Below the pieces are notes generated by a model. It made no database searches. It had not been told where the DNA came from and saw nothing but the letters and a program-made list of their open reading frames with translations. The position numbers were made by a program, and so were the translations under genes. Shown here piece by piece: positions 995-26,588 of a stretch of 64,000 nucleotides of DNA; positions within the stretch are counted from its first letter, which is position 1; each line of letters begins with the position of its first letter. This DNA is from an uncultured Bacillota bacterium (lineage in GTDB: Bacteria; Bacillota; Clostridia; Acetivibrionales; DTU013), in the NCBI GenBank assembly GCA_942493145.1, contig OW818679.1, positions 740,901 to 804,900 on the forward strand. The letters are read 5' to 3'.

Positions 995-1070
995 TCTTGA
1001 CGAACCTAAAATTCATCCCCTATTACCTAAATTGAGCCTCCTTGTTAAAGAGTGGCCGTGATGTTATTCT
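995..1070 (+). promoter_or_regulatory. Conserved upstream element, copy 1: ACCTAAA direct repeats at 21-bp period, then TTGTTA-N17-TATTCT with an extended -10 TG
   Basis: 46/51 nt identical to 15393-15443, and both copies share ATGTTATTCT downstream. Lies directly upstream of the athL-like gene. Confidence 0.7.
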
Positions 1071-1136
1071 GAAAAAGTAAATCATGCCAGAGAAAATTAT
1101 CAAGATTCAGCTGTTTATTAATAAGTGGAGGGTATT

Positions 1137-3665
1137 ATGGCAGAACAAATTTTTACCAACTGCGCAATCGGCGGGGCAGTATTCGTGCACGTTGACGACG
1201 GCAGGATCACCAAGATCCGGCCTATCGTTTTTGATGAGACCGACGCGCCGGCATGGTCCATCGAGGCACGCGGCAAGACATTTACGCCGCCTCGTCAGAC
1301 CTCATTGGGCTCCTATGTTGTAACGCAGAAGGCACGCATTTATTCGGAAAACCGGATCAAGTATCCGATGAAGCGCGTCGACTTTGATCCTAACGGGGAA
1401 CGTAATCCCCAGAACCGCGGCAAGTCCGGCCACGTCCGCATCACCTGGGATGAAGCTTTTGATATGCTGGAATCAGAAATCACCCGGATTCACGCCACCT
1501 ATGGCAAGGCCGCTATCACCGCCTCCACCAGCTCCCACGCCGATTTCGGCCTGCTTCAGTACAAGATGGGCCCCTTCGGTCGCTTCTGGAACATGCTGGG
1601 TTATACGCAGCTCAGCGACAACCCGGACTCATGGGAAGGCTGGCACTGGGGCGCCACTCATGCCTGGGGTTACTACTGGAAGCTGGGAATCAGCGACAAC
1701 TTCGACATGCTCGAAGAGGCAATGAAACACACCGAACTGCTCGTCTTCTGGGGCGTTGACCCGAATACCTCAGCTGGCGGTTACAACGGCCAGGACGGAT
1801 GTCGCTGGCGCTTGTGGTGCAAGGAGCTGGGGATGAAAATGGTCTTCATCGATCCCTGGAATAATTTCACAGCCAGCACCTGGGGCGACAAATGGATTGC
1901 GCCCTATCCCGCCACCGACGGCGCCATGGCCGAAGCCATCGCCTGGGTCTGGATCACCGAGGATACTTATGATCACATGTTCGTTGAGAATAAAACACTA
2001 GGTTTTGAAGAGTTCAAAAAGCATATCCTTGGCCAGGAAGAAGGGGGCTTCCCCCGTACTCCAGAGTGGGCCGCCGGGGTATGCGGAGTCAACGCGCGTG
2101 ATATCTATGCACTCGCCCGGGAATGGGCCGCCAAGAAAACGATGTTGTGCACGGGCTCCATCTACGGAGTGTCCGGCGCCTGCCGCCAGCCCTACGCTAC
2201 CGAATGGGCGCGTCTCATGGTTTTTCTGCTTGCTATGAAAGGGCTGGGTAAGGATGGATGCAACACTTGGGGCGGGGCCTCCATGGCGCCTCCTATGGAC
2301 ATGAGCTTCAGATTCTTCGGATACTCCGACAACGGCTGGGATACCTTCGGGATTGTGGCCAAGGAATCAGCTAAGAACACGGTCCAACAGAAGACCTACC
2401 GTCTGCTGCTGCCCGAGTGCATCATGAACGAGAAGACCGAATGGATAGGGGAAGGGTTCTGTGGGAACTCCCTGGAACAGCAACTGACCAGGAATGTCTG
2501 TCCGCTCCCAAAGGAAGAGGGCGGAGCTCCCATCAAGATGCTTTACCGCCAAGGCGGTTCATACATATCCACTATGACCGACACCAACCGCTGGGTGAAC
2601 ATGTTCCAGCATCCCAACCTGGAGTTCTTTGTTACCGCCGACATCCACTGGCAGAGTGAGACCAGGTTCGCTGACCTGATTCTGCCCATCTGCTCCGGCT
2701 TTGAGAAGGAAGACATCTGCGAGCTGGGGGCGCCGGGTGGTTACGGTGCCAACGACATGGGCGCCAACTTCCGGGTTATCATCTACATGAAGCAGTGCAT
2801 CAAGCCCCTGTGGGAATCCAAGTCCGACTACGATATTTACGTTGAGCTTTCCAAGCGGTTCGGCTTCCAGGACCGGTTCACCGAGGGGAATACCATGGAG
2901 GACTGGATTAAAAAGATTTTTTACAAGTCGTCACTTCACGAGCGCGTTACCTACGAGGAGTTCAAGAAGAAAGGGTACTACGTGGTGCCCCCACCAAAGC
3001 CGGACTTCAAGCGTGCCGTTTCCAACAAGTGGTACTATGAGGATCGGGAGTGTGATGTGCCTGACCACAAGAATCCCATGAAGGGAACCCCAAGGGCCAA
3101 GATGATGGGGACTCCCAGCGGCAAGATCGAGTTCGTTTCCACCTTCCTGGAAGAGCACTTCCCGGAGGACAAGGAGCGTCCGGTCATGGGTCAGTACCTG
3201 GAGCCTTGGGAAGGAGTGCGCGCACCCCTCGCGGAAAAATATCCGCTGATTTTGGAAACCCCGCATATGCGATTCTCTTACCACACTCACTTCGACAACA
3301 AGTCTCCGTGGCTGGATGAGATTCCCATACATCGCGCAATGAAGGACGGATACGCCTATTGGCCGGTCCGCATGCATCCGATCGATGCCAATGCCCGCGG
3401 GATTAAGAATGGTGATCTCCTGAAGATGTACAATGACCGCGGCGCTGTTTTGGTTGTGGCATATCTGACTGAGCGTATGAAGCCTGGCGTGCTTATGTCC
3501 TATCAAGCCGGCGCCAAGTATGATCCGCTGGAACCGGGGAAGCCGGGAAGTATCGACCGCGGCGGCTGCGTGAACTTGCTTGCACCATCCCGTATGGTTT
3601 CCAAGAATGCACCGGGCATGGTTAGCAACTCGATTTGTGTCGAAATCGATAAATGGGAGGCTTGA
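1137..3665 (+). CDS. Mo-bisPGD (DMSO reductase family) enzyme, pyrogallol transhydroxylase large-subunit (AthL)-like
   Basis: Motifs IEARGKTFTPPR, DFDPNGERNPQ, NPDSWEGWHWG (Ser Mo ligand), FADLILP and DRGGCVN match recalled AthL. No Tat signal and no N-terminal Fe-S motif. Start set at ATG 1137 after GGAGG. Confidence 0.85.
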   Translation: MAEQIFTNCAIGGAVFVHVDDGRITKIRPIVFDETDAPAWSIEARGKTFTPPRQTSLGSYVVTQKARIYSENRIKYPMKRVDFDPNGERNPQNRGKSGHVRITWDEAFDMLESEITRIHATYGKAAITASTSSHADFGLLQYKMGPFGRFWNMLGYTQLSDNPDSWEGWHWGATHAWGYYWKLGISDNFDMLEEAMKHTELLVFWGVDPNTSAGGYNGQDGCRWRLWCKELGMKMVFIDPWNNFTASTWGDKWIAPYPATDGAMAEAIAWVWITEDTYDHMFVENKTLGFEEFKKHILGQEEGGFPRTPEWAAGVCGVNARDIYALAREWAAKKTMLCTGSIYGVSGACRQPYATEWARLMVFLLAMKGLGKDGCNTWGGASMAPPMDMSFRFFGYSDNGWDTFGIVAKESAKNTVQQKTYRLLLPECIMNEKTEWIGEGFCGNSLEQQLTRNVCPLPKEEGGAPIKMLYRQGGSYISTMTDTNRWVNMFQHPNLEFFVTADIHWQSETRFADLILPICSGFEKEDICELGAPGGYGANDMGANFRVIIYMKQCIKPLWESKSDYDIYVELSKRFGFQDRFTEGNTMEDWIKKIFYKSSLHERVTYEEFKKKGYYVVPPPKPDFKRAVSNKWYYEDRECDVPDHKNPMKGTPRAKMMGTPSGKIEFVSTFLEEHFPEDKERPVMGQYLEPWEGVRAPLAEKYPLILETPHMRFSYHTHFDNKSPWLDEIPIHRAMKDGYAYWPVRMHPIDANARGIKNGDLLKMYNDRGAVLVVAYLTERMKPGVLMSYQAGAKYDPLEPGKPGSIDRGGCVNLLAPSRMVSKNAPGMVSNSICVEIDKWEA

Positions 3666-3669
3666 TCAG

Positions 3670-4503
3670 ATGAGTAAGCAATATGGAATTGTAATAGATG
3701 TGGCGAAGTGCACCGGATGTTATGCCTGCTACCTCGCCTGTAAGGATGAAAACTGCGGGGAGGAGCATCCCGGTTATACGGCGGCGCAGCCCATGACCGG
3801 CCAGTATTGGCTCAACATTACTGAGGTTGAGCGCGGTACCTTTCCCAAGGTCAAATTAAGCAACGTTCCGAAGCTTTGCGGTCACTGCGACAACCCCAGC
3901 TGTATGATGCAAGCGGAGAACGGCGCGGTATACAAGCGGGAAGACGGAATTGTGATGATTGATCCGGTCAAGGCTGTCGGCCAGAAGCAGATCGTGTATA
4001 CCTGTCCGGAACGGTTGATCTTCTGGAACGAGGAGAAGCAGCTTCCCCAGAAGTGTGACATGTGTGCCCATCTTCTGGATCAGGGCTACAAGATGCCCCG
4101 CTGCGTGGAAATGTGTCCTACGGGTGCGCTAATCTTCGGGGATATGAACGACCCCGACAGCGAGATTTCCAAGCTGGTGGCTGAAAAGAAACCTTATTCG
4201 GCTTATCCGGAGTTCGGCCTGAAGGAAAAAGTCCTATACCTGAACATCCCGAAGAAGTTTGTGGCTGGCACCGTGGCCTTCAAGGAAACCGATCAGTGCG
4301 CCAAGGATGTCAAGGTGACCCTGAAGGGTAACGGCATCGAGCAGTGCATCGAAACGGACGTGTTCGGCGATTTCTGGTTTGATGATCTGGAAAACAAGGC
4401 GGACTACACTTTGGAGATCGCGGCGGAAGGGTACAAGAAAATCAGCCTCACCACCCGTACCATAAATGATGTCAACCTGGGAGAAATTTTCCTGGAAAAA
4501 TAA
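3670..4503 (+). CDS. Fe-S subunit, pyrogallol transhydroxylase small-subunit (BthL)-like, with C-terminal beta-sandwich domain
   Basis: IDVAKCTGCYACYLAC, CGHCDNPSC, AVYKREDGIVMIDP, KCDMCAH..PRCVEMCP and ETDVFGDFWFD. ATG is 4 nt after the athL-like stop. Confidence 0.85.
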   Translation: MSKQYGIVIDVAKCTGCYACYLACKDENCGEEHPGYTAAQPMTGQYWLNITEVERGTFPKVKLSNVPKLCGHCDNPSCMMQAENGAVYKREDGIVMIDPVKAVGQKQIVYTCPERLIFWNEEKQLPQKCDMCAHLLDQGYKMPRCVEMCPTGALIFGDMNDPDSEISKLVAEKKPYSAYPEFGLKEKVLYLNIPKKFVAGTVAFKETDQCAKDVKVTLKGNGIEQCIETDVFGDFWFDDLENKADYTLEIAAEGYKKISLTTRTINDVNLGEIFLEK

Positions 4504-4559
4504 GGCTCTATGTCAATTTATGGGGTGGGGATCAAGTAAAAAAATATTGAGATATTTTC

Positions 4560-4600
4560 CCGACGGATGATCTGAAAATGATTATCCGTCGGTTTTGTTT
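4560..4600 (+). terminator. Probable intrinsic terminator after the athL/bthL-like pair
   Basis: CCGACGGAT-N15-ATCCGTCGG followed by TTTTGTTT. Confidence 0.5.
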
Positions 4601-4787
4601 CTGATGATACACAGGAGGGGCAAGCTTGCAATTGATACTGATAGGTAAAACTAAAATGCCCGACGGCACCAAAAATAACCCTACCGATTCCAAACATACT
4701 CGCCTTTTCATCATTTAATATAATGATATAATTATTAATTGAAGTAGTGTTTTTTAACGAATCACAAAATAAGATAGGAGAATAATT

Positions 4788-5999
4788 ATGAGTCTTCAAT
4801 TAGGCATTCCAGAATCAGCAATGATCGCTCTCACTGACTTGGTGGACAATTGCTGCGGAGTGGACAATTACGCAGGAGCAAACAAACCGCAGCTCAAGGA
4901 ACCACTCATCGGTCCGGGCAAGGAAATCCTCATTATTGCGCACAAGGACGGTCTTTACGGCGGCAACAACCTGATCGACGAAGAGGCTGTCGCCTGGCTG
5001 TCTTCCGTCATTACCTCACGCGGCGCGCGTTGCTCAATTCTATGGGTCGACGATCCACAAAAGCCGCACGAGTGGCGTTATCCCAAAATCGTTAAAGCCG
5101 CTATCGCCGGTGCTGACTTAATCATCAACACTTCCTTCCAGATGGCTGTTGAGGAGATCGCTGAGTTCCGTAACCACATCGAAGAAGCGGACACCTGGAT
5201 GGTCCGTCTGTTCCCCGTAACAAAGGAACTGCTCATGACAGAATGGGCACAAACACCTTATGAGCTTACGAAGATGATGCGTCACGCTGCGTCCAAATCT
5301 TTCCAGGGCAAAGAGGGAGACGAATTCAAATTCGTCATGACCGATACCAACGGCACACACATCGAAGGCAACACGATCCAGCCAAAACCACGTCCCGGCA
5401 TCCCCGGACATGGCTATGCTTCATGGCGCAGAGACTCAAGCCACTACCTGCCCTTCCCTGAGTGGGTACATCCTCCAATCAACTGCAAAAACGTCAACGG
5501 CGTATTTATATTCGACTCCATGCTGAGCTGGTGGTCGCCCGTAATCGGCATTGATCCCGAGTGGAAAACTCCAATCAAAATCGAAGTACAAGACTCCAGG
5601 ATGGTCAATATCACCGGCGGTCTGGAAGCTGCCAAACTCAATAGCTTCCTTAAGACCATGGTAGGCAAAGTCGGAGAGGGCATCTACAACTTCGATACCT
5701 TCCACTTCGGTATTCATCCCAACGCGAAGGTCGCAGATTATCAGTGTCCGCATGACCTCTACAGGCGCATAGTCGACCATATGCATACCTCAAATCTGCA
5801 TTTCCACATAGGATCGGCTCCTGCCAACCCGAGCTACAACTTCTATCCCCATGTCACCGGCGACATCCGCAATGCTGACCTGGTTGTCAACGGCAAGAAG
5901 GTCTATGACAATGGCTGGCTCTGCTGTCAGGACGATCCGGATGTAAGGGCAGTTGCTGCCAAGTATCCCGGTCGCCCAGGTATCCCTGAAAGATTTTAA
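4788..5999 (+). CDS. M29 aminopeptidase-fold / NicX-like metalloenzyme of unknown function
   Basis: C-terminal FHFGIHPNA...HTSNLHFHIGS...PHVTGDIRNADLVVNGKKVYDNG resembles the M29/NicX C-terminal pattern. Good RBS. Confidence 0.55.
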   Translation: MSLQLGIPESAMIALTDLVDNCCGVDNYAGANKPQLKEPLIGPGKEILIIAHKDGLYGGNNLIDEEAVAWLSSVITSRGARCSILWVDDPQKPHEWRYPKIVKAAIAGADLIINTSFQMAVEEIAEFRNHIEEADTWMVRLFPVTKELLMTEWAQTPYELTKMMRHAASKSFQGKEGDEFKFVMTDTNGTHIEGNTIQPKPRPGIPGHGYASWRRDSSHYLPFPEWVHPPINCKNVNGVFIFDSMLSWWSPVIGIDPEWKTPIKIEVQDSRMVNITGGLEAAKLNSFLKTMVGKVGEGIYNFDTFHFGIHPNAKVADYQCPHDLYRRIVDHMHTSNLHFHIGSAPANPSYNFYPHVTGDIRNADLVVNGKKVYDNGWLCCQDDPDVRAVAAKYPGRPGIPERF

Positions 6000-6083
6000 T
6001 CAACGGCGTTGCGAAGCAACAGCCAAAAGGCGAGAGGGGCTCGATGCCTCCGAGACTTTTAGTGTCAGAACAGGAGAATTAAT

Positions 6084-7271
6084 ATGAGTAAATTAATAGC
6101 ATATGTTGGACGCAACCACGTTGCTGGTTTTCAGGGCGGTGGTATCGACGTATTTGAAGTTAGCAGAGACGGATCCGTGATTACTCCTCTTGGAAACGGA
6201 ATCAAGGATGAGCCGAAGCGCGCCGGATTTCTTGGCTATGCTCCGAAATCAGGTGTCCTCTATTCAGTAGACGAAAGGAAAACCGACGGTCGTGGACCGA
6301 AGATGCCACCTGCTACTATTATGGCGTTCAAGGTTGACCAGAAGACTGCTGCACTCAGCCTTATCAACAAGCAGGAAGCTATCGGATGCAATCCGGCTTC
6401 TGTATGTGTGGGTCCGGATGAGAAATATCTGTTTACTGCCAACCACGGTTTCTTTGAGCATGTCATCAAAGCTGTCGAAACCGCAGACGGCAAATGGGTC
6501 AACACTTTCGTTTATGACGACTCAACGGTTGTTCAGTACCCGTTGAATGCAGATGGTTCCATCGAACCGGCTTGTGACTGTAATGTCCTCACCGCTCATG
6601 GCAAGGACCCTAACAGTTCTCCACAAGGTGGTGGCCATGCCCAGGCAAGTTCACATGCACACATTGTTGTCGTAGATCCTTCCGGCAAGTTCCTTCTGGT
6701 CTGCGAAAAAGCAGGCGAACGGGTTTACGTTTACCGCCTTGGCGGTGACAAGCTTGTCCTGGCTTCAATTTACCAGTGTCCGCTGGGAACCGGTCCAAGG
6801 CATTGCGCTTTTGATAATAAAGGTCGCATGTTCATGACCAGTGAATTCTCTTCCGAGATATGGGCATTTGGGTTTGACACTGAAACAGGTGTCCTGAAGT
6901 ACATTGACAAACAGTCCACGATCGCTGAAGGCTTCAAAGGCCGCAACGAGCTGGCAACTATTCAGATTCATCCGAATGGCAAGTTAGTCTACGTGAACAA
7001 TCGCGGAGAGGATACTATTGTCTGCTTCAATATCTCCGAGGATGGGAAGCTAAAGAAGGCGTCATCAATTTCTGTCGGCAAATGCCCGGCGGATCCAAAG
7101 GACGCAGTTCGCGACATGCAGCTATCCCCGGACGGCGCATTCCTGCTTGTCCCGGTACGCCCGGATGATGTGATCCGCTCATATGCAGTGGATCAAAAAA
7201 CCGGAGATTTGAAGAATATAGCTGAAGTTCCGGTTGAGAACCCCGTATACATACAATTCATCGAACTTTAA
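6084..7271 (+). CDS. Beta-propeller lactonase family protein (6-phosphogluconolactonase / carboxymuconate cyclase-like)
   Basis: SHAHIVVVDPSGKFLLV, GTGPRHCAF, IHPNGKLVYVNNRG. Confidence 0.85.
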   Translation: MSKLIAYVGRNHVAGFQGGGIDVFEVSRDGSVITPLGNGIKDEPKRAGFLGYAPKSGVLYSVDERKTDGRGPKMPPATIMAFKVDQKTAALSLINKQEAIGCNPASVCVGPDEKYLFTANHGFFEHVIKAVETADGKWVNTFVYDDSTVVQYPLNADGSIEPACDCNVLTAHGKDPNSSPQGGGHAQASSHAHIVVVDPSGKFLLVCEKAGERVYVYRLGGDKLVLASIYQCPLGTGPRHCAFDNKGRMFMTSEFSSEIWAFGFDTETGVLKYIDKQSTIAEGFKGRNELATIQIHPNGKLVYVNNRGEDTIVCFNISEDGKLKKASSISVGKCPADPKDAVRDMQLSPDGAFLLVPVRPDDVIRSYAVDQKTGDLKNIAEVPVENPVYIQFIEL

Positions 7272-7289
7272 GATGTTTAATTTGCTTGA

Positions 7290-7329
7290 ATACATTGCTC
7301 CCGGCCATCATTGGCCGGGAGCAATGTAT
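7290..7329. other. Perfect 18-bp inverted repeat with a 4-nt loop and no T-tract (possible mRNA-stabilising stem)
   Basis: ATACATTGCTCCCGGCCA-TCAT-TGGCCGGGAGCAATGTAT. Confidence 0.75.
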
Positions 7330-7398
7330 ATTGGCCCGTCTGTGAAACAAAAATAGAGTTAAAAAATCAAAACTATTTTTTTATGAGGAGGAATCAAA

Positions 7399-8442
7399 AT
7401 GATTATTGATGCAAATATGCACCATCTTCCGGAAGATTTGTTTACAAACGAAGAAGTGCTGAACGGTTTTCTATCGACTGCTCCGCGCGGCTTTGGTGAA
7501 ATAGCATCTGTGGGTATTACCGAGTCCGGCAAACGTCAGATCATTGTGGAAAAACCGAAAGGCTACCAGAACCTGAACTACGTGGAAGGCGACTATTCGC
7601 TCGAAATGAAGATAAAAGCCATGGATGAGAACGGCGTCGACAAAGCTATCCTGCGGGTACCGGTATGGCAGGAATGGCTGCGGCTGGATACCTGCAAGAT
7701 CGTCAATGACAACGCAGCCGATATGTGCAAACGCTCAAACGGCCGTCTCTATGCCAACGCTTGCGTTCCACCATGGGGCGGCAAGGATAATATCTATGAG
7801 TTCGAACGCTGCATCAAGGAGCTCGGCATGGTCGGTGTCCAGCTGGCATGCCATTACGGCCAGCTCTACCTCGACGATGAAGCCTTCAAGCCCTATCTCA
7901 AGGTCATAAACGATATGAAAATCCCTGTCGTCGTACACCACACCCCTGGACCGGTCCGTTGGGAGTCAATGTATGAATACACGAACCTGCGCCGCGAGTT
8001 AGGCCGCGTCACCGACCAGGCTACAGCCGTGGGACGCGAACTCTTCAGCGGCATGTTCGAAGAATTCCCGAACCTGAAGTTCATCCACACCATGCTCGGC
8101 GGCAACTGGTTCGCGAACTACAACCTTCTGGTTCCGAAGCATGGGAAGAAGAAGGAAGCAATGCAGCGTCTGGACATGAGTGAAGGAGAACGTGTTCTGG
8201 GTTATCTGAAGAACAACCTGTACTTCGATACGACCCATCCGGCTTCCTGGGGCAAAGATCAGATCGAATGCGCGATCAAAGTCTGCGGAGCCGACCACAT
8301 CCTGTTTAGCTCGTCGTTCCCCGTATTTTACAACTGGATGTCGGATGGAGTCGATTTCATGAAGTCACTCGATCTCTCAGACAAAGACCGCGAGCTTGTT
8401 ATGAGCGGTAACGCTATCCGTTTGTTCAATCTTAAGGTTTGA
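7399..8442 (+). CDS. Amidohydrolase-2 (ACMSD/LigW-like TIM barrel) protein with non-canonical metal ligands
   Basis: IIDANMH, ELGMVGVQL, PVVVHH, LKFIHTMLGG, LYFDT, HILFSSSFP. Confidence 0.8.
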   Translation: MIIDANMHHLPEDLFTNEEVLNGFLSTAPRGFGEIASVGITESGKRQIIVEKPKGYQNLNYVEGDYSLEMKIKAMDENGVDKAILRVPVWQEWLRLDTCKIVNDNAADMCKRSNGRLYANACVPPWGGKDNIYEFERCIKELGMVGVQLACHYGQLYLDDEAFKPYLKVINDMKIPVVVHHTPGPVRWESMYEYTNLRRELGRVTDQATAVGRELFSGMFEEFPNLKFIHTMLGGNWFANYNLLVPKHGKKKEAMQRLDMSEGERVLGYLKNNLYFDTTHPASWGKDQIECAIKVCGADHILFSSSFPVFYNWMSDGVDFMKSLDLSDKDRELVMSGNAIRLFNLKV

Positions 8443-8443
8443 C

Positions 8444-8884
8444 CAGCCGGCGATCTTCTGGTACTATTGAAGTGTTCTGCGGCTGCATGATATATGCCAG
8501 CACTGCGATGAGGCTCCTTGCATAGAGGCTTGCAAGTCCAATGCGGTTTACAAACGGGAGGATGGCATCGTTATCATTGACCCGTATAAATGTACGGGCA
8601 ATCGTAACTGCCTGGATGCTTGTCCTACTGGCGCTCTTAAATTTGGCGAAGAAGAGGATTTAAAAGACTTATTAGCAGATGCCGCGATACTTCATTCCGA
8701 GTATGGTACACGTCCCAGGGTTTACTATAAAGGTTTACCCAATAAGTACTTCTGGTTTGAAAGACAAGAACCAGGCATCTACCGGCTTAAGATGGAGATG
8801 GATGGATACATTCCTGTGGTTCTGGATGATATTGAGGTAACCAAAGATATCAACGTGGGAGATATTGAGTTGCGGCAGGGGTGA
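8444..8884 (+). pseudogene. Internally deleted remnant of a BthL-like Fe-S subunit paralog
   Basis: Own translation: QPAIFWYY*SVLRLHDICQHCDEAPC..AVYKREDGIVIIDP..CLDACP|TGALKFG..RPRVYYKGLPNKYF|WFE..DINVGDIEL. In-frame TGA at 8468, no start codon, two blocks missing relative to 3670-4503. Confidence 0.8.
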
Positions 8885-17170: not shown

Positions 17171-17213
17171 ATAAGCAGATTATAAACTGATATAAGAAAG
17201 CGACGTGATCCAT

Positions 17214-18395: not shown

Positions 18396-18425
18396 ATAAT
18401 TGTTAAATTAAGAGAGGAATGCCTT

Positions 18426-19241
18426 ATGAAAACTATAATCACTGCAGCCCTGACAGGGGCTATTGCACCAAAAGCAAAGAACCCCAACATACCAACCACA
18501 CCAAGGGAGATCGCTGAAGACGGCATTCGCTGCTGGAAAGCAGGAGCTTCTGTACTGCATCTGCATATGAGAGATGACGATTTTAAAGGAACCATGGATA
18601 AAAACCGTTTCGCTGAGACTGTGAACATCTTGCGCGGATCATGTGACGCGATCCTGAACCTTACAACTTCCGGTGAACTGGGAATTCCGGACGAGCGCCG
18701 CATGGAACACGTCATCATGCTGAAGCCCGAGATGGCAACATTTGACGCAGGTACGATTAACGCCGGCGACGGTATTTTTGAAAATAGCATCCCTTTTTTG
18801 TATAAGCTCGGGAAAGTGCTTATTGAAAACGGTGTAAAACCCGAAGTTGAAATCATGGATCTTGGCTTTATAAGCGAAGCGCAGCACTATATAAGCAAGG
18901 GCGTGCTTGTGAACCCTGTCCACTACCAGTTTGTGCTGGGCTTCGGCATCTCAGGAGCACCGGCGACACCCGAAAATCTGCTCTATATGAAGAGCAAGAT
19001 CCCATCCGATTCTACATGGTCTGCGTTCGGCACCGGCAATTCGCATCTGCCGATAATGTATACCGCGATCGCTGCTGGAGGGCATATACGAGTAGGTCTT
19101 GAAGATAATCTCTTCTACGGGCCGGGTGTACTCGCGACGAATGAGATGCTCGTACAGCGTGCCGGAAGGGTTGTTAAAGAGTTCGGCAATGAAGTTGCAA
19201 CACCTGCTGATGCCAGAGAGATATTAGGTCTGCGCAAATAA
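18426..19241 (+). CDS. Beta-keto acid cleavage enzyme (BKACE / DUF849, Kce family)
   Basis: IITAALTG, NIPTTPREIA, HLHMRD (Zn His pair), KPEVE, GGHIRVGLEDN. Confidence 0.92.
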   Translation: MKTIITAALTGAIAPKAKNPNIPTTPREIAEDGIRCWKAGASVLHLHMRDDDFKGTMDKNRFAETVNILRGSCDAILNLTTSGELGIPDERRMEHVIMLKPEMATFDAGTINAGDGIFENSIPFLYKLGKVLIENGVKPEVEIMDLGFISEAQHYISKGVLVNPVHYQFVLGFGISGAPATPENLLYMKSKIPSDSTWSAFGTGNSHLPIMYTAIAAGGHIRVGLEDNLFYGPGVLATNEMLVQRAGRVVKEFGNEVATPADAREILGLRK

Positions 19242-19250
19242 CGGTCAAAA

Positions 19251-19397
19251 TCGCCGGTTAAGCGGCGCAATTTGGACAACGACACAGTCTCCCCCACGGT
19301 CGTTGTTCAAACGCCACGCGTAAGCGGGGCGCGCGAAGCGTAGCGTAGGGCGGATTCATTCCGCCCGTAGCGAGGGGGCATGGGGGCTTGCCCCCAT
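19251..19397. repeat. GC-rich multi-hairpin intergenic element containing a GTAG-type REP-like palindrome
   Basis: Hairpins at 19272-19310, GTAG+GGGCGGA-TTCAT-TCCGCCC at 19345-19366, and ATGGGGGC-TT-GCCCCCAT at 19380-19397. Single copy in the window. Confidence 0.45.
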
Positions 19398-19441
19398 TGG
19401 AAATCGAGTGACGGCGCACTGGTGCCGGAATGGAGGAAACC

Positions 19442-20401
19442 ATGAAAACAGGAAAAATAGCATTTGTAGGCGCTGGCCAAATCGGCAGCGGATTGGCACT
19501 CAATTGCATTACCCACGGCATGCCAGTCGTCCTGCAGACAAGAAAGCAGACAGAGCTGGTAAAGAGCCGCATTGATTCGGGGTTGGTATTTTTCGTAGAT
19601 AGTGGCATCATTTCACAGGAAGAGGCCGACAAAGCCGCAAAGCTTGTTACAATTACTACATCCATTGAGGAAGCAGTCACCGGCGCCTATATGATACAGG
19701 AGTCCGGTCCGGACAGTATTGAGTTGAAGCATTCTCTTATTGAGCAAATCGAAGCTTATGCGCCTGAGGATGCCATTATTGCTACAAGCACCTCCAGCCG
19801 TTCCATTACGGAGGTGTTTTCAAAAGCGAAGCATCCTGAACGTTGCATGGGCGGACATCCCTATAACCCTGCCTATCTGATACCGCTGGTGGAGATCACA
19901 AAGGGCGAAAAAACCTCTGATGAATACGTAGTAAAGGCTAAAGCGTTATATGAGCAAATGGGTAAAGTACCCACAGTTCTAAACAAAGAGGTAATCGGCT
20001 TTATAGCAAACCGCTACCAGAGCGCGATCCATCGCGAGGCGGTAGACCTTGTGGAAAATGGGATATGCTCGGTCGAAGACGCTGATAAGGCCTTGGTCTA
20101 TAGCGTCGGTCTGCGCTGGAGCGTTCTCGGTCAATTCCTTTCCATGCATCTTGGCGCTGCTCCGGAAGGCTTGGGCGGTTTTAACGAGAAATATCATATC
20201 GACGTAACAAAGCCCGATGGACGTTTGAGTAATATGCCCACCTGGACGACTTTCCCTGAGAAATGGAGCGAGCATGCCAGTGTCGGTATTGAGGAAGCCA
20301 TTGCAAAACGCGACACCTCGACAGGAAACGACATCGCTTCCATAGAAAAATGGAGAGACAACATGTTGGTTGAAACACTTCGTCTCCATGGCATACTGTA
20401 A
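19442..20401 (+). CDS. 3-hydroxyacyl(-CoA) dehydrogenase family protein, carnitine/L-gulonate dehydrogenase-like
   Basis: VGAGQIG, IQESGPD, ATSTS, GGHPYNPAYLIPLVE, GFIANR, GLRW. Confidence 0.88.
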   Translation: MKTGKIAFVGAGQIGSGLALNCITHGMPVVLQTRKQTELVKSRIDSGLVFFVDSGIISQEEADKAAKLVTITTSIEEAVTGAYMIQESGPDSIELKHSLIEQIEAYAPEDAIIATSTSSRSITEVFSKAKHPERCMGGHPYNPAYLIPLVEITKGEKTSDEYVVKAKALYEQMGKVPTVLNKEVIGFIANRYQSAIHREAVDLVENGICSVEDADKALVYSVGLRWSVLGQFLSMHLGAAPEGLGGFNEKYHIDVTKPDGRLSNMPTWTTFPEKWSEHASVGIEEAIAKRDTSTGNDIASIEKWRDNMLVETLRLHGIL

Positions 20402-20446
20402 CAGACTAATGTATCAGATCATTCAGAAAGTAGAGGAGAGATTATT

Positions 20447-21307
20447 ATGGCTTTACAACCTTACATTCACGTTGAAACCTTTGAAGAATACAAGGAACGG
20501 TTTAAGGATTTTGCATACATGGAGCGTACAGAGGATGGCATTATTCTGGTGCGTCTTCACTGGAAGGGAGGACCTGTTGTCTGGAGCTATCAGACACAAC
20601 ATTGTTACGGTGAGCTTTGGACAGCAATAGGTCATGACAAGAAGAATGAAGTGATGATCCTTACTTGTCAGGATCCTTACTGGATGGTTCAGAAGAGCGA
20701 TCCTGCATCATTCGATGAAGTAGAAGATTCTACAGACACTGCACTTAAATATAACTGCAATATTCCTGACACAATGAATTTTGTTGAAAACTTCATCAAT
20801 GACATTGAGATCCCGGTTATTGCCGCGGTAAACGGAATAGGACAGCATTTCGAATTTGCATTGATGTCTGATATTACGATTTCTGACCCCGACTTTTATT
20901 TCTCCGATGCTCACTTCTCCCATAATATTGTACCCGGCGATGGTATGAATTTCTCTTATCGCACCTGCCTCGGAATCAAGCGGTCAACTTACATGGCGTA
21001 TATGGAGCCGAAAATTGACGCAAAAACTGCGCTGGAATGGGGCCTTATCCATGAAATCGTCGAGCATGACCAACTCATTCCGCGTGCCTATGAGATTGCT
21101 AATCACATCATGAAAACAAATCGCGCTGTCCGCCGTCTGACGCATGAACTTGCAATGCGTCCTTGGAAGAGGGCACTTCAGGACGATGAGCGCGTACACG
21201 TTCTTTCAGAAATGTATGCTGTTCAGCTTGAAGCAACACGCCACAATTTCGACAAAATTGCTGCTGATTTTACCGGGGATCGGCCTCAGCATAAGCAGGA
21301 CAAATAG
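20447..21307 (+). CDS. Crotonase-superfamily beta-diketone hydrolase (6-oxocamphor hydrolase-like), paralog 2
   Basis: GGPVVWSYQ, IEIPVIAAVNGIGQH, DAHFSHNIVPGDG, GLIHEIV, RAYEIA, LSEMY. Clear paralog of 16328-17170. Confidence 0.8.
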   Translation: MALQPYIHVETFEEYKERFKDFAYMERTEDGIILVRLHWKGGPVVWSYQTQHCYGELWTAIGHDKKNEVMILTCQDPYWMVQKSDPASFDEVEDSTDTALKYNCNIPDTMNFVENFINDIEIPVIAAVNGIGQHFEFALMSDITISDPDFYFSDAHFSHNIVPGDGMNFSYRTCLGIKRSTYMAYMEPKIDAKTALEWGLIHEIVEHDQLIPRAYEIANHIMKTNRAVRRLTHELAMRPWKRALQDDERVHVLSEMYAVQLEATRHNFDKIAADFTGDRPQHKQDK

Positions 21308-21383
21308 TAGTCTGCAATTCTTGATGAATTCTCATGGCCTTTTCAGAAAGCTTACCTCGGAATTTGATGAAAGGGGGGATAGT

Positions 21384-22442
21384 ATGAACATACTGGTTTT
21401 AAACCCGGGCTCTACCTCGACGAAGGTCGCAATATACCGTGATACGGAGGAACTGCACAAAAAGACACTCTCCCATTCCAGGGAGGAGCTGTCGGCTTTT
21501 CATAACCTGATGGACCAGCTGGACTTCAGGTATGGGCTAGTTATGGATTTTCTGAAAGAGGTTGGCTTTGAGCCTGCAATGCTCGATTGTATCATGTCCC
21601 GCGGCGGTTCCCCGCCAAATGTCAATTCAGGTGCAACGATCATCGGAGACCGTTTGGTCCAGGCTCTCCGTGAGCGTCCCAAGGAACCGCACCCAGCCTC
21701 CCTCGGACCGATCATAGCCGATCGGATCTCAAAGAGTGCAGGAATTCCGGCCTATATCTATGACCCCATCACCGCCGACGAGATGAACCCGATGGCCAAG
21801 GTATTCGGAATAAAAGGAATCGAACATGACAGCATGTGCCATTTCCTGAATTCGCATGCCATGGGTATCTCCGTGGCAAAGGAGCTGGGCAGGCCATTTG
21901 AAGAGCTGAACCTGATTGTTGCCCATTTCGGCGGCGGAAACTCTCTTTGCTTCTGGTCCAAAGGACGTCCGACAGATGTAGTCCCCGGTGATGCCGGCAC
22001 ATTTTCCTCCGAGCGCTGCGGTCCCATCCGTGGAGAGCGATTGCTTCAGCTGTGCAAAGAACATGGCTTTGAAACGCTTTCAGGCTGGTTCCACGGAAAG
22101 GGAGGACTTGTTTCCCTTTTGGGAACCAATGACCTGCGCGATGTGGAGAAGAAGATACAAGCTGGCGACAGCTACGCGCTTCTGGTTTTACAGGCCATGG
22201 CATACCAGCTGTCCAAAAACATCGCATCCCTGTTCCCTGTAACCTGCGGTAATGTGGATGGTATCATCCTGACAGGCGGAGGTGCTCACCTTGAACGCCT
22301 TGTCAACGAAATCAAAAACAGGCTTGCCTATCTGAACACCCCCATATACGTGCGACCCGGGGAAAACGAGATGCAGTCTCTTGCCGAAGGCGCGTACCGC
22401 GTCATGCGTGGAGAGGAAGACGCCAAGGAATATGTGGGATAG
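21384..22442 (+). CDS. buk: Butyrate kinase
   Basis: MNILVLNPGSTSTK, RGG, DEM, AHFGGGNS, FSSER, IILTGG, PGENEMQSLA. Confidence 0.92.
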   Translation: MNILVLNPGSTSTKVAIYRDTEELHKKTLSHSREELSAFHNLMDQLDFRYGLVMDFLKEVGFEPAMLDCIMSRGGSPPNVNSGATIIGDRLVQALRERPKEPHPASLGPIIADRISKSAGIPAYIYDPITADEMNPMAKVFGIKGIEHDSMCHFLNSHAMGISVAKELGRPFEELNLIVAHFGGGNSLCFWSKGRPTDVVPGDAGTFSSERCGPIRGERLLQLCKEHGFETLSGWFHGKGGLVSLLGTNDLRDVEKKIQAGDSYALLVLQAMAYQLSKNIASLFPVTCGNVDGIILTGGGAHLERLVNEIKNRLAYLNTPIYVRPGENEMQSLAEGAYRVMRGEEDAKEYVG

Positions 22443-22513
22443 AAAAGCACTGGATATGGAAAATGAAACGGAAAGAATGCGCGGGACATAAACAGAAAGA
22501 AAGGATTGTTGAT

Positions 22514-23431
22514 ATGGAACTGCATAGCTTTGAAGAAATATTGGCCATGGCGGGCGGAAGCGGCAAAAAAAGCATTATGGCTGTGGCAGGCGCCGGAAAG
22601 GCCGCCGTTATCGACGCAGTGCTCGAAGCCGTAGACCGTGGGGTCGTGGAACCTGTCCTGGTCGGTGAACCGGAGGATATCCAGGAATTGCTCCGGGAGA
22701 GAGGAAGAAGCGTTTCGGATTTCAATATCGTCAAAACAGCAGTGGGGCAGACCCCTGCGGAAACCGCCGTTGAGATTATAAAGGAGGGCAGCGCCAATTT
22801 CCTGATGAAGGGGTCGGTGGAGACCTCGGACCTGCTGAGGCCGGTCGTAAAAAAGGAAAACGGGCTTCGCACCGGACGGACGATCTCACATGTTGCCTTT
22901 TATCAGCTGCCCTTCTACCACAAGCTCATAATAACAACAGACGGAGGAATATGCGCGTACCCTGACCTCGCAATGAAGAAGGACATAATAATGAATGCTC
23001 TTGATGCACTGCATCTGCTGGGATATGAAAAGCCTAATGTTGCAGTGCTTTGCTGCAAGGAAACCGTTGACAAGAACATGATAGAAACACAGGATGCATA
23101 TGCGCTTAAGGAAATGAGCGAACGCGGTGAATTGGGAAGCTGTGTGGTTGAGGGCCCGATATCCTACGACCTTGCAATGAGCAAGGAAAGGGCGAAACTT
23201 AAGAAATACGATTGCCCGTATTCCGGTGATTTCGACATTCTTGTGGCGCCGAATATCCATGCGGGTAATATTCTTGGTAAGTGCCTTGAAATACTGCCCG
23301 GCGTCACCATGGCAAGCTATGTTTCCGGAGCCCGTATACCCATCGTGCTGACTTCCAGGGCAGCGCCCGCGATGGAACGAATTACCTGCATTGCATTGGC
23401 GGGCATTATCGCCACGCGCCACGGCGCCTGA
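22514..23431 (+). CDS. ptb: Phosphate butyryltransferase
   Basis: LMKGSVET, TDGG, VEGPISYDLA, DILVAPNIHAGNILGK, PIVLTSRA. Confidence 0.9.
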   Translation: MELHSFEEILAMAGGSGKKSIMAVAGAGKAAVIDAVLEAVDRGVVEPVLVGEPEDIQELLRERGRSVSDFNIVKTAVGQTPAETAVEIIKEGSANFLMKGSVETSDLLRPVVKKENGLRTGRTISHVAFYQLPFYHKLIITTDGGICAYPDLAMKKDIIMNALDALHLLGYEKPNVAVLCCKETVDKNMIETQDAYALKEMSERGELGSCVVEGPISYDLAMSKERAKLKKYDCPYSGDFDILVAPNIHAGNILGKCLEILPGVTMASYVSGARIPIVLTSRAAPAMERITCIALAGIIATRHGA

Positions 23432-23468: not shown

Positions 23469-23497
23469 TTGACATATAATGAATATGCAATTATAGT
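23469..23497 (+). promoter_or_regulatory. SigA-type promoter upstream of the Fe-S / Mo-enzyme-2 pair
   Basis: TTGACA-N17-TATAGT. Confidence 0.6.
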
Positions 23498-24001: not shown

Positions 24002-24044
24002 GAGTATTTGCCACCTAAGTCCGAAAAAAATAAGGAGAATACCT

Positions 24045-26588
24045 ATGGAAAATAAAGATAATGTCAAAGTAGTTAAAACAGGAGCATGGTCGGGCGGTCC
24101 TGGATGTCATGGCGGATGCGGTGTGGAACTGTATATCAAGGACGGTAAACTTATTAAAGTAGAAGGCGATGAGGATCATCCGTTTCTGCAGGGTCGACTT
24201 TGTCCAAGAGCTCTGGCTATGACCCAGTATGCCTATCATCCCAACCGTTTGCAGCAGCCATTGAGACGTGTGGGTGCCCGCGGTGAGGGAAAATGGGCTC
24301 CCATTTCCTGGGATGAGGCTCTGGACGAGATCGAGTATAAGTTCAAGAAGATCCGCCAGGAAGATGGCCCGGAGTCCATAGTCTTTGGTCAGGGTACCGG
24401 TCGTGATGCCGGCGGCTCACTGATCTTCCTGGCCTATGCTTACGGCAGCCCCAACTGGACGCTGTTCGGCCTTTCGGGTATTGCCTGCTTCACACCCAGG
24501 CTTGCTGCCATGAATATGGTTGCCGGTGATATCCAGTTCGAGGATGCAGCTCAGATGTCACCTGAGCGTTATAATGATCCTGATTTTGTAGTTCCTGAGG
24601 TCATGATCATATGGGGCCGCGGCACCCGCGGAAGCCAGTGTGCTGACCACTACTATTCCAGTCACTGGGTTGTAGACCTGATGAAGCGCGGCACAAAGTT
24701 TATCGTTATAGATCCGCGCCAGACGTGGATGTCCACCCGTGCTGAAAAGTTCCTGCAGGTTCGTCCCGGTTCTGACTGTGCTCTGGCACTGGGTATGCTG
24801 CACGTCATCATAAACGAGGAACTGTATAACAAGGAATTCGTTGAGAAGTGGACCTATGGCTTTGAAGACCTGAAAAAGCGCGTGCAGGAATATACGCCTG
24901 AGAGAGTTGCAGAAATTACCTGGGCAAAGGCTGAGGACATTGTCGACGTTGCCCGTATGTATGCTCGTGCAAAACCGGCTTCGATCCGATGGGGTCAGCC
25001 GCTTGACAGTAATGCAAATTCCATCGGTTCAATACAGGCCCTTAACTGCCTGTGGGCGATAACCGGCAATTTGGATGTTCCTGGCGGTGAGGTCATTGCA
25101 CGTCCTCCGTACAAGGTTACGCTTTATCCTTATTCAACATGGGAGACGGTCCAGCTGTACGGCCAGGAATTTGTCGATACGATGAACCAGAAGCGTATCG
25201 GGTGTGACAAGTATGATCTGGTTAAGAATTTTCGCTCCTGGGCTATTTCGGACGATGTTCTGGCCCAGATGGAGACGCAGAAGCCATATCCTATCCGTGG
25301 TCTGTATCTGTATACCAATAACTTCATGGCCTGCACGGCACAGGATCCACGACGCTATTATGAGGCTGTCAAGAAGCTCGAGTTCAACGTTGTTGCCGAT
25401 ACCTTCATGACGCCTACCTGTCAGGCTGTTGCAGACCTTATTCTACCGGGAACAACATTCGCGGAGAAAGACTCTGTATTTACGACCGGCGTTCCGCTTA
25501 ATGCGATTTCAAAACAGATTCAGGTCGCGGAATGCCGCAGCCATTGGGAAGTGGCATTTGAGCTGGCAAAGCGTCTGAACCCGCAGGCTGTGCCCTGGCC
25601 AACGCTGAAGGATCTTTTTGATGCTCGTCTCGCCGTGACCGGCAAGACGTTTGATGAACTGGCGAAGAATACATGGGATCTGGCGCCCAAGGATCATCCC
25701 TCTGGCTGCAGCGGCTACTATCGTTATGAGAAAGGACTCCTGAGAACCGACGGAAAGCCTGGCTTCAATACTCCCACCGGTAAGGTTGAGCTTTACTCTA
25801 CATTACTTGAAAAATATGGTGCCGACCCGTTGCCTCATCACGAAGAGCCCATCGAGAGTCCCATCAGCACTCCTGAAGTATATGAAGAGTATCCCCTGAC
25901 ACTGATTACAGGCCGTCGTATGCCCACCATGTTCCATAGTGAGCACAGGCAGATACCCTGGCTTCGTCAGTTTGAGGAGGAGCCTATTGTTGAACTTCAT
26001 CCAAAGACAGCAGAGAAGCTTGGACTTAACGATGGACAGTGGGTATGGATTGAAGGCGTTCGCGGCAAATGTAAGCGTAAACTAAAGGTTACCCCGGTAA
26101 TTCATGAGGATATTGCCATGGCGCCTCATGCATGGTGGCTTCCGGAATCAGAAGGCGCGGCTCCTAACCTGTATGGTATTTGGGATATTAATGTTAACCA
26201 GCTTATACCGACCGGCTTCAATCATCCACTGACTGGTTACGGCGGAGCACCGACAAAAACCATGCTCTGCAAAATTTATTCACTTGGTGAAAACGATGTA
26301 ATACCGACTGAGCATACCAAGGTTGACCGCCTTGATTTCTCGAATCTGTATGATATTGTTAAACAAGAGGATATGAACGATCCGAATTACCGCGGAGATA
26401 AGCCGACCGAATTTGCTACAGAGAAAAGCTGGGATATTCCGCAAAATACTCCTGTTTACAGTTTTAAACAGCCGCAGGGAAATATGAAAGTTAAGCAAAT
26501 GGATATAGAGGAAACGAATGAGCAGATACGCGAGTTCAAGGCCAGGTTCGACGGTCAGGTATTTGCACCAAGCAGTGAGACGAAATAG
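24045..26588 (+). CDS. Mo/W-bisPGD oxidoreductase, acetylene hydratase / catechol dehydroxylase-like clade, cytoplasmic
   Basis: WSGGPGCHGGCG..GRLCPR, YGSPNW..SGIACF (Cys Mo ligand), ADLILP, TPTGKVEL, LITGRR..FHSEHRQ, LCKI. No Tat motif. Confidence 0.85.
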   Translation: MENKDNVKVVKTGAWSGGPGCHGGCGVELYIKDGKLIKVEGDEDHPFLQGRLCPRALAMTQYAYHPNRLQQPLRRVGARGEGKWAPISWDEALDEIEYKFKKIRQEDGPESIVFGQGTGRDAGGSLIFLAYAYGSPNWTLFGLSGIACFTPRLAAMNMVAGDIQFEDAAQMSPERYNDPDFVVPEVMIIWGRGTRGSQCADHYYSSHWVVDLMKRGTKFIVIDPRQTWMSTRAEKFLQVRPGSDCALALGMLHVIINEELYNKEFVEKWTYGFEDLKKRVQEYTPERVAEITWAKAEDIVDVARMYARAKPASIRWGQPLDSNANSIGSIQALNCLWAITGNLDVPGGEVIARPPYKVTLYPYSTWETVQLYGQEFVDTMNQKRIGCDKYDLVKNFRSWAISDDVLAQMETQKPYPIRGLYLYTNNFMACTAQDPRRYYEAVKKLEFNVVADTFMTPTCQAVADLILPGTTFAEKDSVFTTGVPLNAISKQIQVAECRSHWEVAFELAKRLNPQAVPWPTLKDLFDARLAVTGKTFDELAKNTWDLAPKDHPSGCSGYYRYEKGLLRTDGKPGFNTPTGKVELYSTLLEKYGADPLPHHEEPIESPISTPEVYEEYPLTLITGRRMPTMFHSEHRQIPWLRQFEEEPIVELHPKTAEKLGLNDGQWVWIEGVRGKCKRKLKVTPVIHEDIAMAPHAWWLPESEGAAPNLYGIWDINVNQLIPTGFNHPLTGYGGAPTKTMLCKIYSLGENDVIPTEHTKVDRLDFSNLYDIVKQEDMNDPNYRGDKPTEFATEKSWDIPQNTPVYSFKQPQGNMKVKQMDIEETNEQIREFKARFDGQVFAPSSETK

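Follow-up and report, generated by a model that had tools for sequence, protein, structure and literature searches.

The window analysed here is a 64-kb stretch of DNA from an uncultured Bacillota bacterium (assembly GCA_942493145.1, contig OW818679.1, positions 740,901 to 804,900), in which the genes on the + strand run without interruption from 1125 to 26588. We describe this run as an island that may be devoted to the catabolism of trihydroxybenzenes, with ring opening assigned to two crotonase-fold proteins that resemble 6-oxocamphor hydrolase, OCH (Table 1). The original prediction, made from the sequence alone, had listed two Mo enzyme pairs, a URO-D-like protein, a tripartite ATP-independent periplasmic (TRAP) transporter and an operon reaching from a short-chain dehydrogenase/reductase (SDR) to genes for butyrate kinase (Buk) and a phosphate butyryl/acetyl-transferase (Ptb), and comparisons with Pfam, NCBIfam and the PDB place all of these genes where it had put them, on the + strand. 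Inside the same range we also identified a 403-residue protein, a lactonase, an Amidohydro_2 protein, a LysR-family regulator and two gene remnants, which it had not mentioned. Pfam scans, covering all larger open reading frames (ORFs) of the window, returned no gene for the biosynthesis of molybdopterin guanine dinucleotide (MGD), for a corrinoid protein or for a CoA-transferase, as had been predicted, and screening the entire 64 kb against Rfam for riboswitches (e.g., for Moco) gave zero matches. The host is a spore-forming Firmicute, with GerA, GerAC and spore permease genes at 49670-53677.

Table 1. Features of the island in window coordinates, with the matches or observations on which each assignment rests.
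Feature	Position	Strand	Basis
AthL-like Mo (bis-MGD) hydroxytransferase, large subunit	1125-3665	+	PF21423, PF00384, PF01568
BthL-like Fe-S small subunit	3580/3670-4503	+	Fer4_11 + CarboxypepD_reg domain
Terminator-like hairpin after the transhydroxylase pair	4560-4592	+	13-bp stem, then T run
Conserved 403-residue protein, NicX fold, His-rich invariant site	4788-5999	+	AlphaFold2 model + Foldseek
7-bladed beta-propeller lactonase-family protein	6084-7271	+	PF10282, 3.6e-64
Amidohydro_2 protein, candidate non-oxidative hydroxybenzoate decarboxylase	7399-8442	+	PF04909
Remnant of a second BthL-like gene	8471-8881	+	open frame, no start codon, two internal deletions
LysR-family regulator	9294-10274	+	HTH_1 + LysR_substrate
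URO-D-like protein	10607-11908	+	PF01208, 5.6e-16
TRAP transporter, DctP	12001-13137	+	Pfam
TRAP transporter, DctQ	13369-13845	+	Pfam
TRAP transporter, DctM	13842-15140	+	Pfam
SDR, candidate NADPH-dependent phloroglucinol reductase	15498-16283	+	adh_short_C2
OCH1, crotonase-fold beta-diketone hydrolase, candidate dihydrophloroglucinol hydrolase	16328-17170	+	ABDH/OCH matches
Acetoacetyl-CoA thiolase	17205-18395	+	Thiolase_N + Thiolase_C; TIGR01930, 423 bits, over cutoff
BKACE, candidate triacetate:acetyl-CoA lyase (TAL-like)	18426-19241	+	PF05853, 1.9e-95
3-Hydroxyacid dehydrogenase, HAD family (TfD-like)	19430-20401	+	3HCDH_N + 3HCDH
OCH2, second beta-diketone hydrolase, 45% identical to OCH1	20447-21307	+	ABDH/OCH matches
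Butyrate kinase (Buk)	21384-22442	+	NF002834, 372 bits; TIGR02707, 345 bits; both over cutoff
Phosphate butyryl/acetyl-transferase (Ptb)	22463-23431	+	PTA_PTB
Promoter-like site before the Fer4S-Mo2 unit	23469-23497	+	11/12 consensus matches
Small 4Fe-4S protein (Fer4S), Mo2 partner, 108 residues	23675-24001	+	Fer4 families
Mo2, bis-MGD Mo/W enzyme, acetylene-hydratase/catechol-dehydroxylase branch	24045-26588	+	PF04879, PF00384, PF01568
Fragment of a second Mo2-type gene	26629-26886	+	69% identical to residues 689-775 of the Mo2 of locus L088

The core of the island is an operon (15498-23431, +) with the gene order SDR, ECH_1, thiolase, BKACE, 3HCDH, ECH_1, butyrate kinase and Ptb; order and families are observed, and the activities we infer. 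The two ECH_1 proteins, here called OCH1 and OCH2, found their best PDB matches in OCH from Rhodococcus (1o8u/1szo) and in the Anabaena beta-diketone hydrolase ABDH (2j5g/2j5s), with E-values of 5e-29 (ABDH) and 1e-26 (OCH) for OCH1 and of 5e-30 (OCH) and 5e-29 (ABDH) for OCH2, whereas the best enoyl-CoA hydratase reached just 5e-11 and 2e-18, respectively. The OCH residues W40, H122, H145, D154 and E244, which we take to be catalytic (after Leonard & Grogan 2004) and whose numbers match the PDB sequence, face identical residues in both OCH1 and OCH2, and these five positions are invariant across an alignment of 21 sequences (A1). With the AlphaFold2 model of OCH1 (pLDDT, the predicted local distance difference test, of 83), OCH and ABDH filled all top 12 Foldseek matches (TM-scores 0.79/0.88, root-mean-square deviation 2.3 Å). 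OCH1 and OCH2 represent two separate, tightly conserved subfamilies, the former at least 60% identical across phyla, and the homologues of both carry the name 'enoyl-CoA hydratase' only in public annotation.

By sequence, and for OCH1 also by model, both ECH_1 proteins resemble CoA-independent beta-diketone hydrolases of the OCH/ABDH type, with which they share the crotonase fold and, presumably, the retro-Claisen cleavage of a cyclic beta-diketone, rather than enzymes acting on CoA esters. OCH and ABDH act on cyclic 1,3-diones, and since dihydrophloroglucinol belongs to this class of compounds, the two proteins would be natural candidates for the opening of its ring. The differences are that identity to OCH and ABDH is just 26-30%, that the context in the window is polyphenol and not terpene catabolism, and that the predicted substrate of the window proteins is monocyclic (5-hydroxycyclohexane-1,3-dione).

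Clostridium scatologenes degrades phloroglucinol with four enzymes (Zhou et al., 2023, PMC10470551): the SDR-type phloroglucinol reductase PGR; DPGC, an Mn enzyme of the cyclase family, which opens the ring of dihydrophloroglucinol; TfD, a dehydrogenase of the HAD family, which acts on the free acid; and TAL, a BKACE with Trp (Trp16 in CsTAL) in place of Glu14 of Kce. The HAD-family dehydrogenase of the window, hereafter HAD, is 36.5% identical to CsTfD (E 1e-37; the CsTfD and CsDPGC queries come from text obtained by optical character recognition and may contain errors) versus 29% to a CoA-dependent HBD. It keeps the catalytic Ser/His/Asn, while the CoA-binding Lys56 and Asn221 are replaced (Gly, Leu/Arg); its nearest NCBIfam models include L-carnitine dehydrogenase, and its sequence fits a TfD-like role on a free acid. 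BKACE matches Kce 2y7d at 5e-63 with Ile in place of Glu14, a position occupied by I, V, G or A in all OCH-linked BKACEs, and this fits a non-amino substrate, yet does not make it a clear TAL. At the end of the operon, the butyrate kinase match begins at residue 81 of ORF 21144-22442, and the Ptb models of NCBIfam score 264-278 bits on the last protein, under cutoff.

Taken at the public names of its homologues, which are all of the CoA kind, the operon would be of the Kce/enoyl-CoA hydratase type and would lie beside the Mo enzymes by chance. Thiolase and butyrate kinase do reach their NCBIfam cutoffs, but the reading is very improbable: the 'hydratases' are far nearer to OCH/ABDH than to any solved enoyl-CoA hydratase and conserve the residues of the OCH catalytic set, Glu14 of Kce is absent from BKACE and the CoA contacts are absent from HAD, Pfam scans found no lysine aminomutase or ammonia-lyase gene in the window, and the genes are syntenic with transhydroxylase genes across phyla.

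The SDR that leads the operon has a gluconate-5-dehydrogenase-like protein as its best PDB match, and its homologues (60-76% identity) lead the same operon in other Firmicutes. Judged by its sequence, it is outside the known PGR clade, for which PDB 5g4k, presumably the PGR of Clostridium sp. ATCC BAA-442, stood in for CsPGR. A structural study of that PGR is cited in the supplement of PMC10470551. No DPGC homologue was found in the window, either by tblastn with CsDPGC at E<=1 or as a PF04199 domain in its ORFs, and the metal motif HxGTHxDxPxH is absent from all six frames (regular-expression search).

The window set and that of C. scatologenes thus share the predicted reaction sequence, the families of the TfD and TAL steps, a non-acidic residue at the Kce Glu14 position and the clustering with thiolase and acyl kinase genes. 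They differ in that the window has two OCH-type hydrolases and no cyclase-family DPGC, an SDR outside the PGR clade, Ile and not Trp at the key position of BKACE, and a cluster joined to transhydroxylase, decarboxylase-like and TRAP genes; two of the four members of the C. scatologenes set, a PGR-clade SDR and DPGC, are missing. The prediction that the island uses enzymes different from those of the characterised route therefore stands for the SDR and for the OCH-type hydrolases in place of DPGC, but not for HAD and BKACE, which are of the same families as TfD and TAL of the 2023 pathway (PMC10470551), on which the prediction had not drawn.

Upstream of the core, the first two genes of the island have the domain make-up of a transhydroxylase, with the AthL N-terminal domain and no N-terminal Fe-S cluster. 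The large subunit aligns over its full length with the AthL of Pelobacter acidigallici (4v4c_A, E 6e-231; 44.5% identity) and contains the AthL-specific N-terminal domain PF21423 (3.6e-23), while PF04879 is absent. We take Ser175 to be the Mo ligand and His144, Arg153, Asp174, Tyr404 and Tyr560 to be substrate residues of the P. acidigallici enzyme (after Messerschmidt 2004; the residue types agree with the PDB sequence). The window protein retains H144, D174, S175, W176, Y404 and Y560, and carries the substitutions R153K and W354V. At least four AthL subfamilies occur among the surveyed loci described below, and a different one, 57-59% identical, is nearer to the P. acidigallici reference than the separate subfamily of the window. 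The small subunit, like that of P. acidigallici AthL/BthL (4v4c), combines Fe-S clusters with a C-terminal beta-sandwich; from the translation, its true start is probably the ATG at 3670 ('MSKQYGIVID'), 4 nt past the AthL stop.

With a probability of roughly 0.6, we propose that the island encodes a trihydroxybenzene catabolism converging on phloroglucinol, followed by a variant of the phloroglucinol fermentation pathway with OCH-type ring opening. The Amidohydro_2 protein would decarboxylate an imported hydroxybenzoate (at best guess an ortho-hydroxy acid, e.g., 2,4,6-trihydroxybenzoate), and the AthL/BthL Mo enzyme would isomerise pyrogallol-type rings to phloroglucinol. The SDR, with NAD(P)H, may then reduce phloroglucinol to dihydrophloroglucinol (5-hydroxycyclohexane-1,3-dione), which OCH1 and/or OCH2, in place of the Mn-dependent DPGC, would hydrolyse in a retro-Claisen reaction to 3-hydroxy-5-oxohexanoate. 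HAD would oxidise this free acid to triacetate (3,5-dioxohexanoate) and BKACE would convert triacetate and acetyl-CoA to acetoacetate and acetoacetyl-CoA, from which thiolase would form acetyl-CoA, with Ptb and Buk making ATP from acyl-CoA. The chemistry that the original prediction had put at the basis of the island, from gallate or pyrogallol over phloroglucinol and triacetate to acetyl-CoA, is supported.

Its alternative, the fermentation of resorcinol via cyclohexane-1,3-dione, is much weaker. There too, a meta-dihydroxylated ring is reduced and a cyclic 1,3-dione then hydrolysed, but HAD and its partners BKACE or fumarylacetoacetase-family hydrolase (FAA-hydrolase, FAH) have no role on the product, 5-oxohexanoate; the phloroglucinol reading is favoured because a free-acid dehydrogenase and a 3,5-diketo-acid cleaver only suit a 3-hydroxy-5-oxo acid. 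We know of no gene for a cyclohexane-1,3-dione hydrolase. The window does not bear out the description of the system as complete from uptake to ATP: it encodes no activation of acetoacetate, and its URO-D-like and TRAP genes are weakly linked to the rest.

Conservation of the neighbourhood in other genomes, proposed as a check of the prediction, was surveyed in 79 loci with OCH homologues from GTDB species-representative genomes (±10 kb around each homologue; loci are designated L001 onwards), the ORFs of which were compared with the window proteins, CsDPGC, CsTfD, 5g4k and FAA-hydrolase. Within 10 kb of the OCH gene, 59 of the 79 loci hold an SDR, 56 an HAD and 51 both; in 44 these two are joined by BKACE or FAA-hydrolase, and 34 of these 44 are free of a cyclase. 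Anywhere among the loci, BKACE occurs in 23 and FAA-hydrolase in 25, and the two are never found together (0/79), which fits two alternative steps for the cleavage of triacetate, a 3,5-diketo acid. The FAA-hydrolase gene (11647-12642 in L084, and in 24 further loci) accompanies OCH1, SDR and HAD in Proteobacteria and its product is 57-71% identical across loci, save two weaker matches (53%, 31%); it is a candidate for the hydrolytic triacetate-cleaving enzyme of an aerobic variant. If BKACE or FAA-hydrolase serves triacetate cleavage in the cyclase-free loci, the OCH protein is left there as the sole candidate for ring opening.

Several of these neighbourhoods reproduce large parts of the island. 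Two Lachnospiraceae metagenome-assembled genomes (MAGs) contain a compact operon SDR-thiolase-BKACE-HAD-Buk-OCH2, set between arginine-biosynthesis genes or era/recO, with proteins 62-75% identical to those of the window and OCH2 as the sole hydrolase. The Clostridiales MAG L001 carries BthL, AthL, the 403-residue protein, lactonase, SDR, OCH1, thiolase, BKACE, HAD and Buk, and L086 has the order Amidohydro_2-SDR-OCH1-thiolase-BKACE-HAD-Buk-Ptb. In a Desulfobacteraceae contig (L085), OCH1 immediately adjoins an SDR of the PGR clade (YCTSK motif); this contig has no cyclase and also contains Amidohydro_2, TRAP genes and a homologue of the 403-residue protein. In actinobacterial contigs, multiple AthL/BthL paralogues stand with OCH1-OCH2, HAD, SDR and BKACE. 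The same gene sets thus recur in several phyla, and since they adjoin each other again there, chance clustering is insufficient: the gene clustering in the island is more than chance.

Some of these loci hold further genes. Directly after the SDR-to-Ptb operon of L086 (9841-12804), which comes from a close relative, lie LarE-, LarB- and LarC-like genes of nickel-pincer cofactor synthesis, and in L085 (1642-5462) hydantoinase A/B genes of the acetone-carboxylase/oxoprolinase family stand between Amidohydro_2 and the TRAP-OCH1-SDR genes. A 490-residue OCH1-OCH2 fusion (P0008, contig_94811 of L090) was considered as Rosetta-stone evidence and rejected, as its long-read contig is rich in frameshifts and has AthL in three pieces; most likely, the fusion arose as an artefact of assembly or of a frameshift.

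Several observations weigh against the proposed pathway. The window has two OCH paralogues but only one SDR, and this SDR is about 31% identical to 5g4k, with CYGSTKGA in place of GYTGYCTSKG. BKACE scores 199 bits with the NCBIfam TAL model NF053538, used as a stand-in for CsTAL (cutoff 430), and 292 bits with the Kce model (cutoff 382). Pfam scans of the larger ORFs found no CoA-transferase in the window that could activate acetoacetate. OCH1 shares about 14 loci of Proteobacteria with DPGC-like cyclases. Four loci from Alteromonadaceae contain a cyclase and neither BKACE nor FAH, so that OCH1 could be the triacetate-cleaving enzyme there or could act on another dione. Finally, the cyclase search covered ±10 kb per homologue and the 64-kb window of a 4.34-Mb genome, and a cyclase may be encoded elsewhere in these genomes.

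The Alteromonadaceae loci bear on the possibility that OCH-like proteins cleave linear triacetate (to acetate and acetoacetate), or another open-chain diketone, while an unrecognised or elsewhere-encoded enzyme opens the ring. The clusters of Paraglaciecola, Alteromonas and Aliiglaciecola combine OCH1 with a PGR-clade SDR, a pair of DPGC-like cyclases and a TfD-like HAD and hold no BKACE or FAH, and OCH1 takes the position of TAL there; the SDR beside the cyclases of Paraglaciecola has 5g4k as its best match (2e-55) and the motif GYTGYCTSKG. We consider such a role improbable in general. BKACE would already serve triacetate cleavage in the window, in L001/L005, L004, L086 and in the Lachnospiraceae operons, where there is no other hydrolase candidate, and in 25 proteobacterial loci OCH1 is found alongside the conserved FAA-hydrolase, a natural 3,5-diketo-acid hydrolase. 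Moreover, the solved relatives OCH and ABDH have cyclic or bicyclic diketones as substrates, according to their PDB entry titles.

Several marine loci hold two sets of genes, one with cyclases, a PGR-type SDR and a TfD-like HAD, the other with OCH1, HAD, SDR and FAH, which suggests a different ring substrate for each set. In L003 (6254-7889) and related marine loci, the DPGC-like cyclases stand in tandem, and only the second has the full HxGTHxDxPxH metal motif. The adjacency of the DPGC and OCH1 sets raises the question of whether SDR/OCH pairs serve a different or additional ring, such as dihydroresorcinol (cyclohexane-1,3-dione), reduced hydroxyhydroquinone or methyl- or acyl-phloroglucinols, the paralogues then corresponding to two substrates or to product enantiomers. 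It would agree with this that the OCH paralogues are only 45% identical, that in Actinomycetota OCH1 and OCH2 are each paired with their own, different SDR type, that the window AthL belongs to another subfamily than the P. acidigallici enzyme (44.5% vs 57-59%), and that Mo2 could make resorcinol-type rings. We nevertheless regard it as unlikely, since the near-universal HAD and 3,5-diketo-acid cleaver require a 3-hydroxy-5-oxo acid, cyclohexane-1,3-dione yielding 5-oxohexanoate instead, and since the transhydroxylase homologues adjoining the core indicate phloroglucinol as the hub.

Between the transhydroxylase pair and the LysR gene lie three intact genes that recur with this system. The 403-residue protein had zero Pfam or NCBIfam matches, and its homologues are hypothetical only in public annotation, but its AlphaFold2 model is of high confidence (pLDDT 91) and predicts the fold of NicX, a 2,5-dihydroxypyridine dioxygenase (best Foldseek match 7cn3, E 6e-19, TM-scores 0.61/0.70). 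The family has invariant His and Asp residues, but a strict anaerobe is unlikely to use the protein as a dioxygenase. Its gene is syntenic with the lactonase gene in L001, L049, L073, L074 and L090, and lactonase homologues (64-82% identity) adjoin the genes for AthL and the 403-residue protein in other loci, both proteins being part of a conserved gene set. Conceivably, the lactonase might act on triacetic acid lactone. Most PDB matches of the Amidohydro_2 protein are non-oxidative decarboxylases from the ACMSD clade, among them gamma-resorcylate decarboxylase and, at 5e-19, LigW2, with 4-oxalomesaconate hydratase and unnamed amidohydrolases as weaker matches, and its homologues adjoin SDR-OCH1 in L086 and L085. 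Aromatic-acid decarboxylases of the LigW2/gamma-resorcylate type use ortho-hydroxy acids, and because of this our guess for its substrate would be 2,4,6- or 2,3,4-trihydroxybenzoate.

Phloroglucinol is a hub of the anaerobic mineralisation of flavonoids and tannins in guts, rumen, peat and sediments. Extending the proposal beyond the island, we tentatively suggest, at slightly less than even odds, that a second phloroglucinol pathway is widespread, with the OCH1 and OCH2 subfamilies as its dihydrophloroglucinol hydrolases, which would operate with BKACE in many anaerobes and with a fumarylacetoacetase-family triacetate hydrolase in many aerobic Alpha- and Gammaproteobacteria and Actinomycetota, and that the NicX-fold protein, the lactonase and the Amidohydro_2 protein are new oxygen-independent enzymes of trihydroxybenzenes or trihydroxybenzoates. 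In the literature searched, we found no paper that connects phloroglucinol with crotonases, OCH or diketone hydrolases, and this OCH-type variant, as delineated by sequence, is apparently uncharacterised and widespread in other bacteria. Annotation tools (CAMPER) and surveys know only the PGR-DPGC-TfD-TAL route, with the consequence that incomplete pathways or suspected cryptic alternatives are reported: SAR116 genomes have PGR and transhydroxylase genes and no DPGC (preprint, bioRxiv 10.64898/2026.07.17.739263), and an 'alternative cryptic' pathway has been raised as a possibility by CAMPER. If the proposal is true, genomes with PGR and transhydroxylase yet no DPGC would be explained, a new assignment would be due for the large set of genes that now bear the label 'enoyl-CoA hydratase', and the flux of polyphenol carbon would become predictable in many more genomes. 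It would also represent a non-orthologous replacement of the C-C hydrolase, and a new family of biocatalysts for the desymmetrisation of 1,3-diones.

The downstream end of the island contains a second Mo enzyme, Mo2, which has an Fe-S domain at its N-terminus and the 4Fe-4S partner Fer4S encoded 43 nt upstream. The best PDB match of Mo2 is acetylene hydratase (2e7z, 5e-100), followed by thiosulfate reductase (5.6e-70), and its N-terminus, MENKDNVKVVKTGAWSGG, has no twin-arginine (TAT) motif. Greater similarity to acetylene hydratase than to the other characterised bis-MGD enzymes is also the criterion by which catechol dehydroxylases have been delimited (Maini Rekdal et al., 2020, PMC7028382); Dodh and Cldh are soluble ones of the Gordonibacter type. 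Compared by description, Mo2 is like these in being a bis-MGD enzyme with no TAT signal, encoded behind a small 4Fe-4S gene, and unlike them in that its host is a Firmicute and its gene lies beside a ring-fermentation operon. Fer4S-Mo2 probably serves as a module for the reductive dehydroxylation of a substrate of the catechol or pyrogallol type. The fragment at 26629-26886, immediately behind the intact gene, appears to be a leftover of a second paralogue.

The original prediction had counted Fer4S-Mo2 as part of the system, a reading that needs correction. An 89%-identical pair, with a Fer4S protein 74% identical to that of the window, is solitary in L088, where it lies with a non-orthologous TRAP transporter (DctP 24%) between housekeeping genes; we conclude that it is a portable and separable module, which may feed the same pool as the core. 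There is accordingly a considerable possibility, somewhat below one half, that the 26-kb stretch is a mosaic in which only 1125-8442 and 15498-23431 belong together, the URO-D-like and TRAP genes and Fer4S-Mo2 being independent modules for other aromatics. The solitary pair of L088, the strong promoter-like site ahead of Fer4S, the two gene remnants, which point to recent rearrangement, and the low identity of the URO-D relatives near OCH genes (4 loci, only 24-29%) all agree with this. In Actinomycetota and Acidobacteriota, on the other hand, Mo2 copies of 62% identity immediately adjoin OCH1/OCH2 or AthL genes (L047, L066 and, as fragments, L044), and TRAP genes are found alongside OCH1 in L085, L083 and L040.

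The ties of the URO-D/TRAP unit to the rest of the island are weak. The PF01208 match spans residues 224-430 only, the C-terminal half of the URO-D-like protein, which had zero NCBIfam matches. In pairwise sequence alignments, DctP has 'HDL' opposite the Arg of PDB 4pfb ('gfRn'), and its best PDB matches, 2pfz and 2pfy, are likewise devoid of Arg at that position.

The BthL-like remnant at 8471-8881 has lost its N-terminus and aligns with the BthL of L001 at 53% identity with 36% gaps (blastx); it is of the BthL type found in this Clostridiales MAG. Beyond the island, the stretch 30710-39884 (+) encodes a flavodoxin/2x[4Fe-4S] protein, a 474-residue protein with a faint hotdog-like match only, a Zn-dependent alcohol dehydrogenase (Zn-ADH), a MerR regulator, a solute-binding protein and a 704-residue protein combining old yellow enzyme (OYE) with an FAD/NAD(P) oxidoreductase. 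These genes were considered as island members and rejected, since they have no conserved link to OCH loci except one 25% OYE match in L060; they look like another unit for aromatic or enoate reduction.

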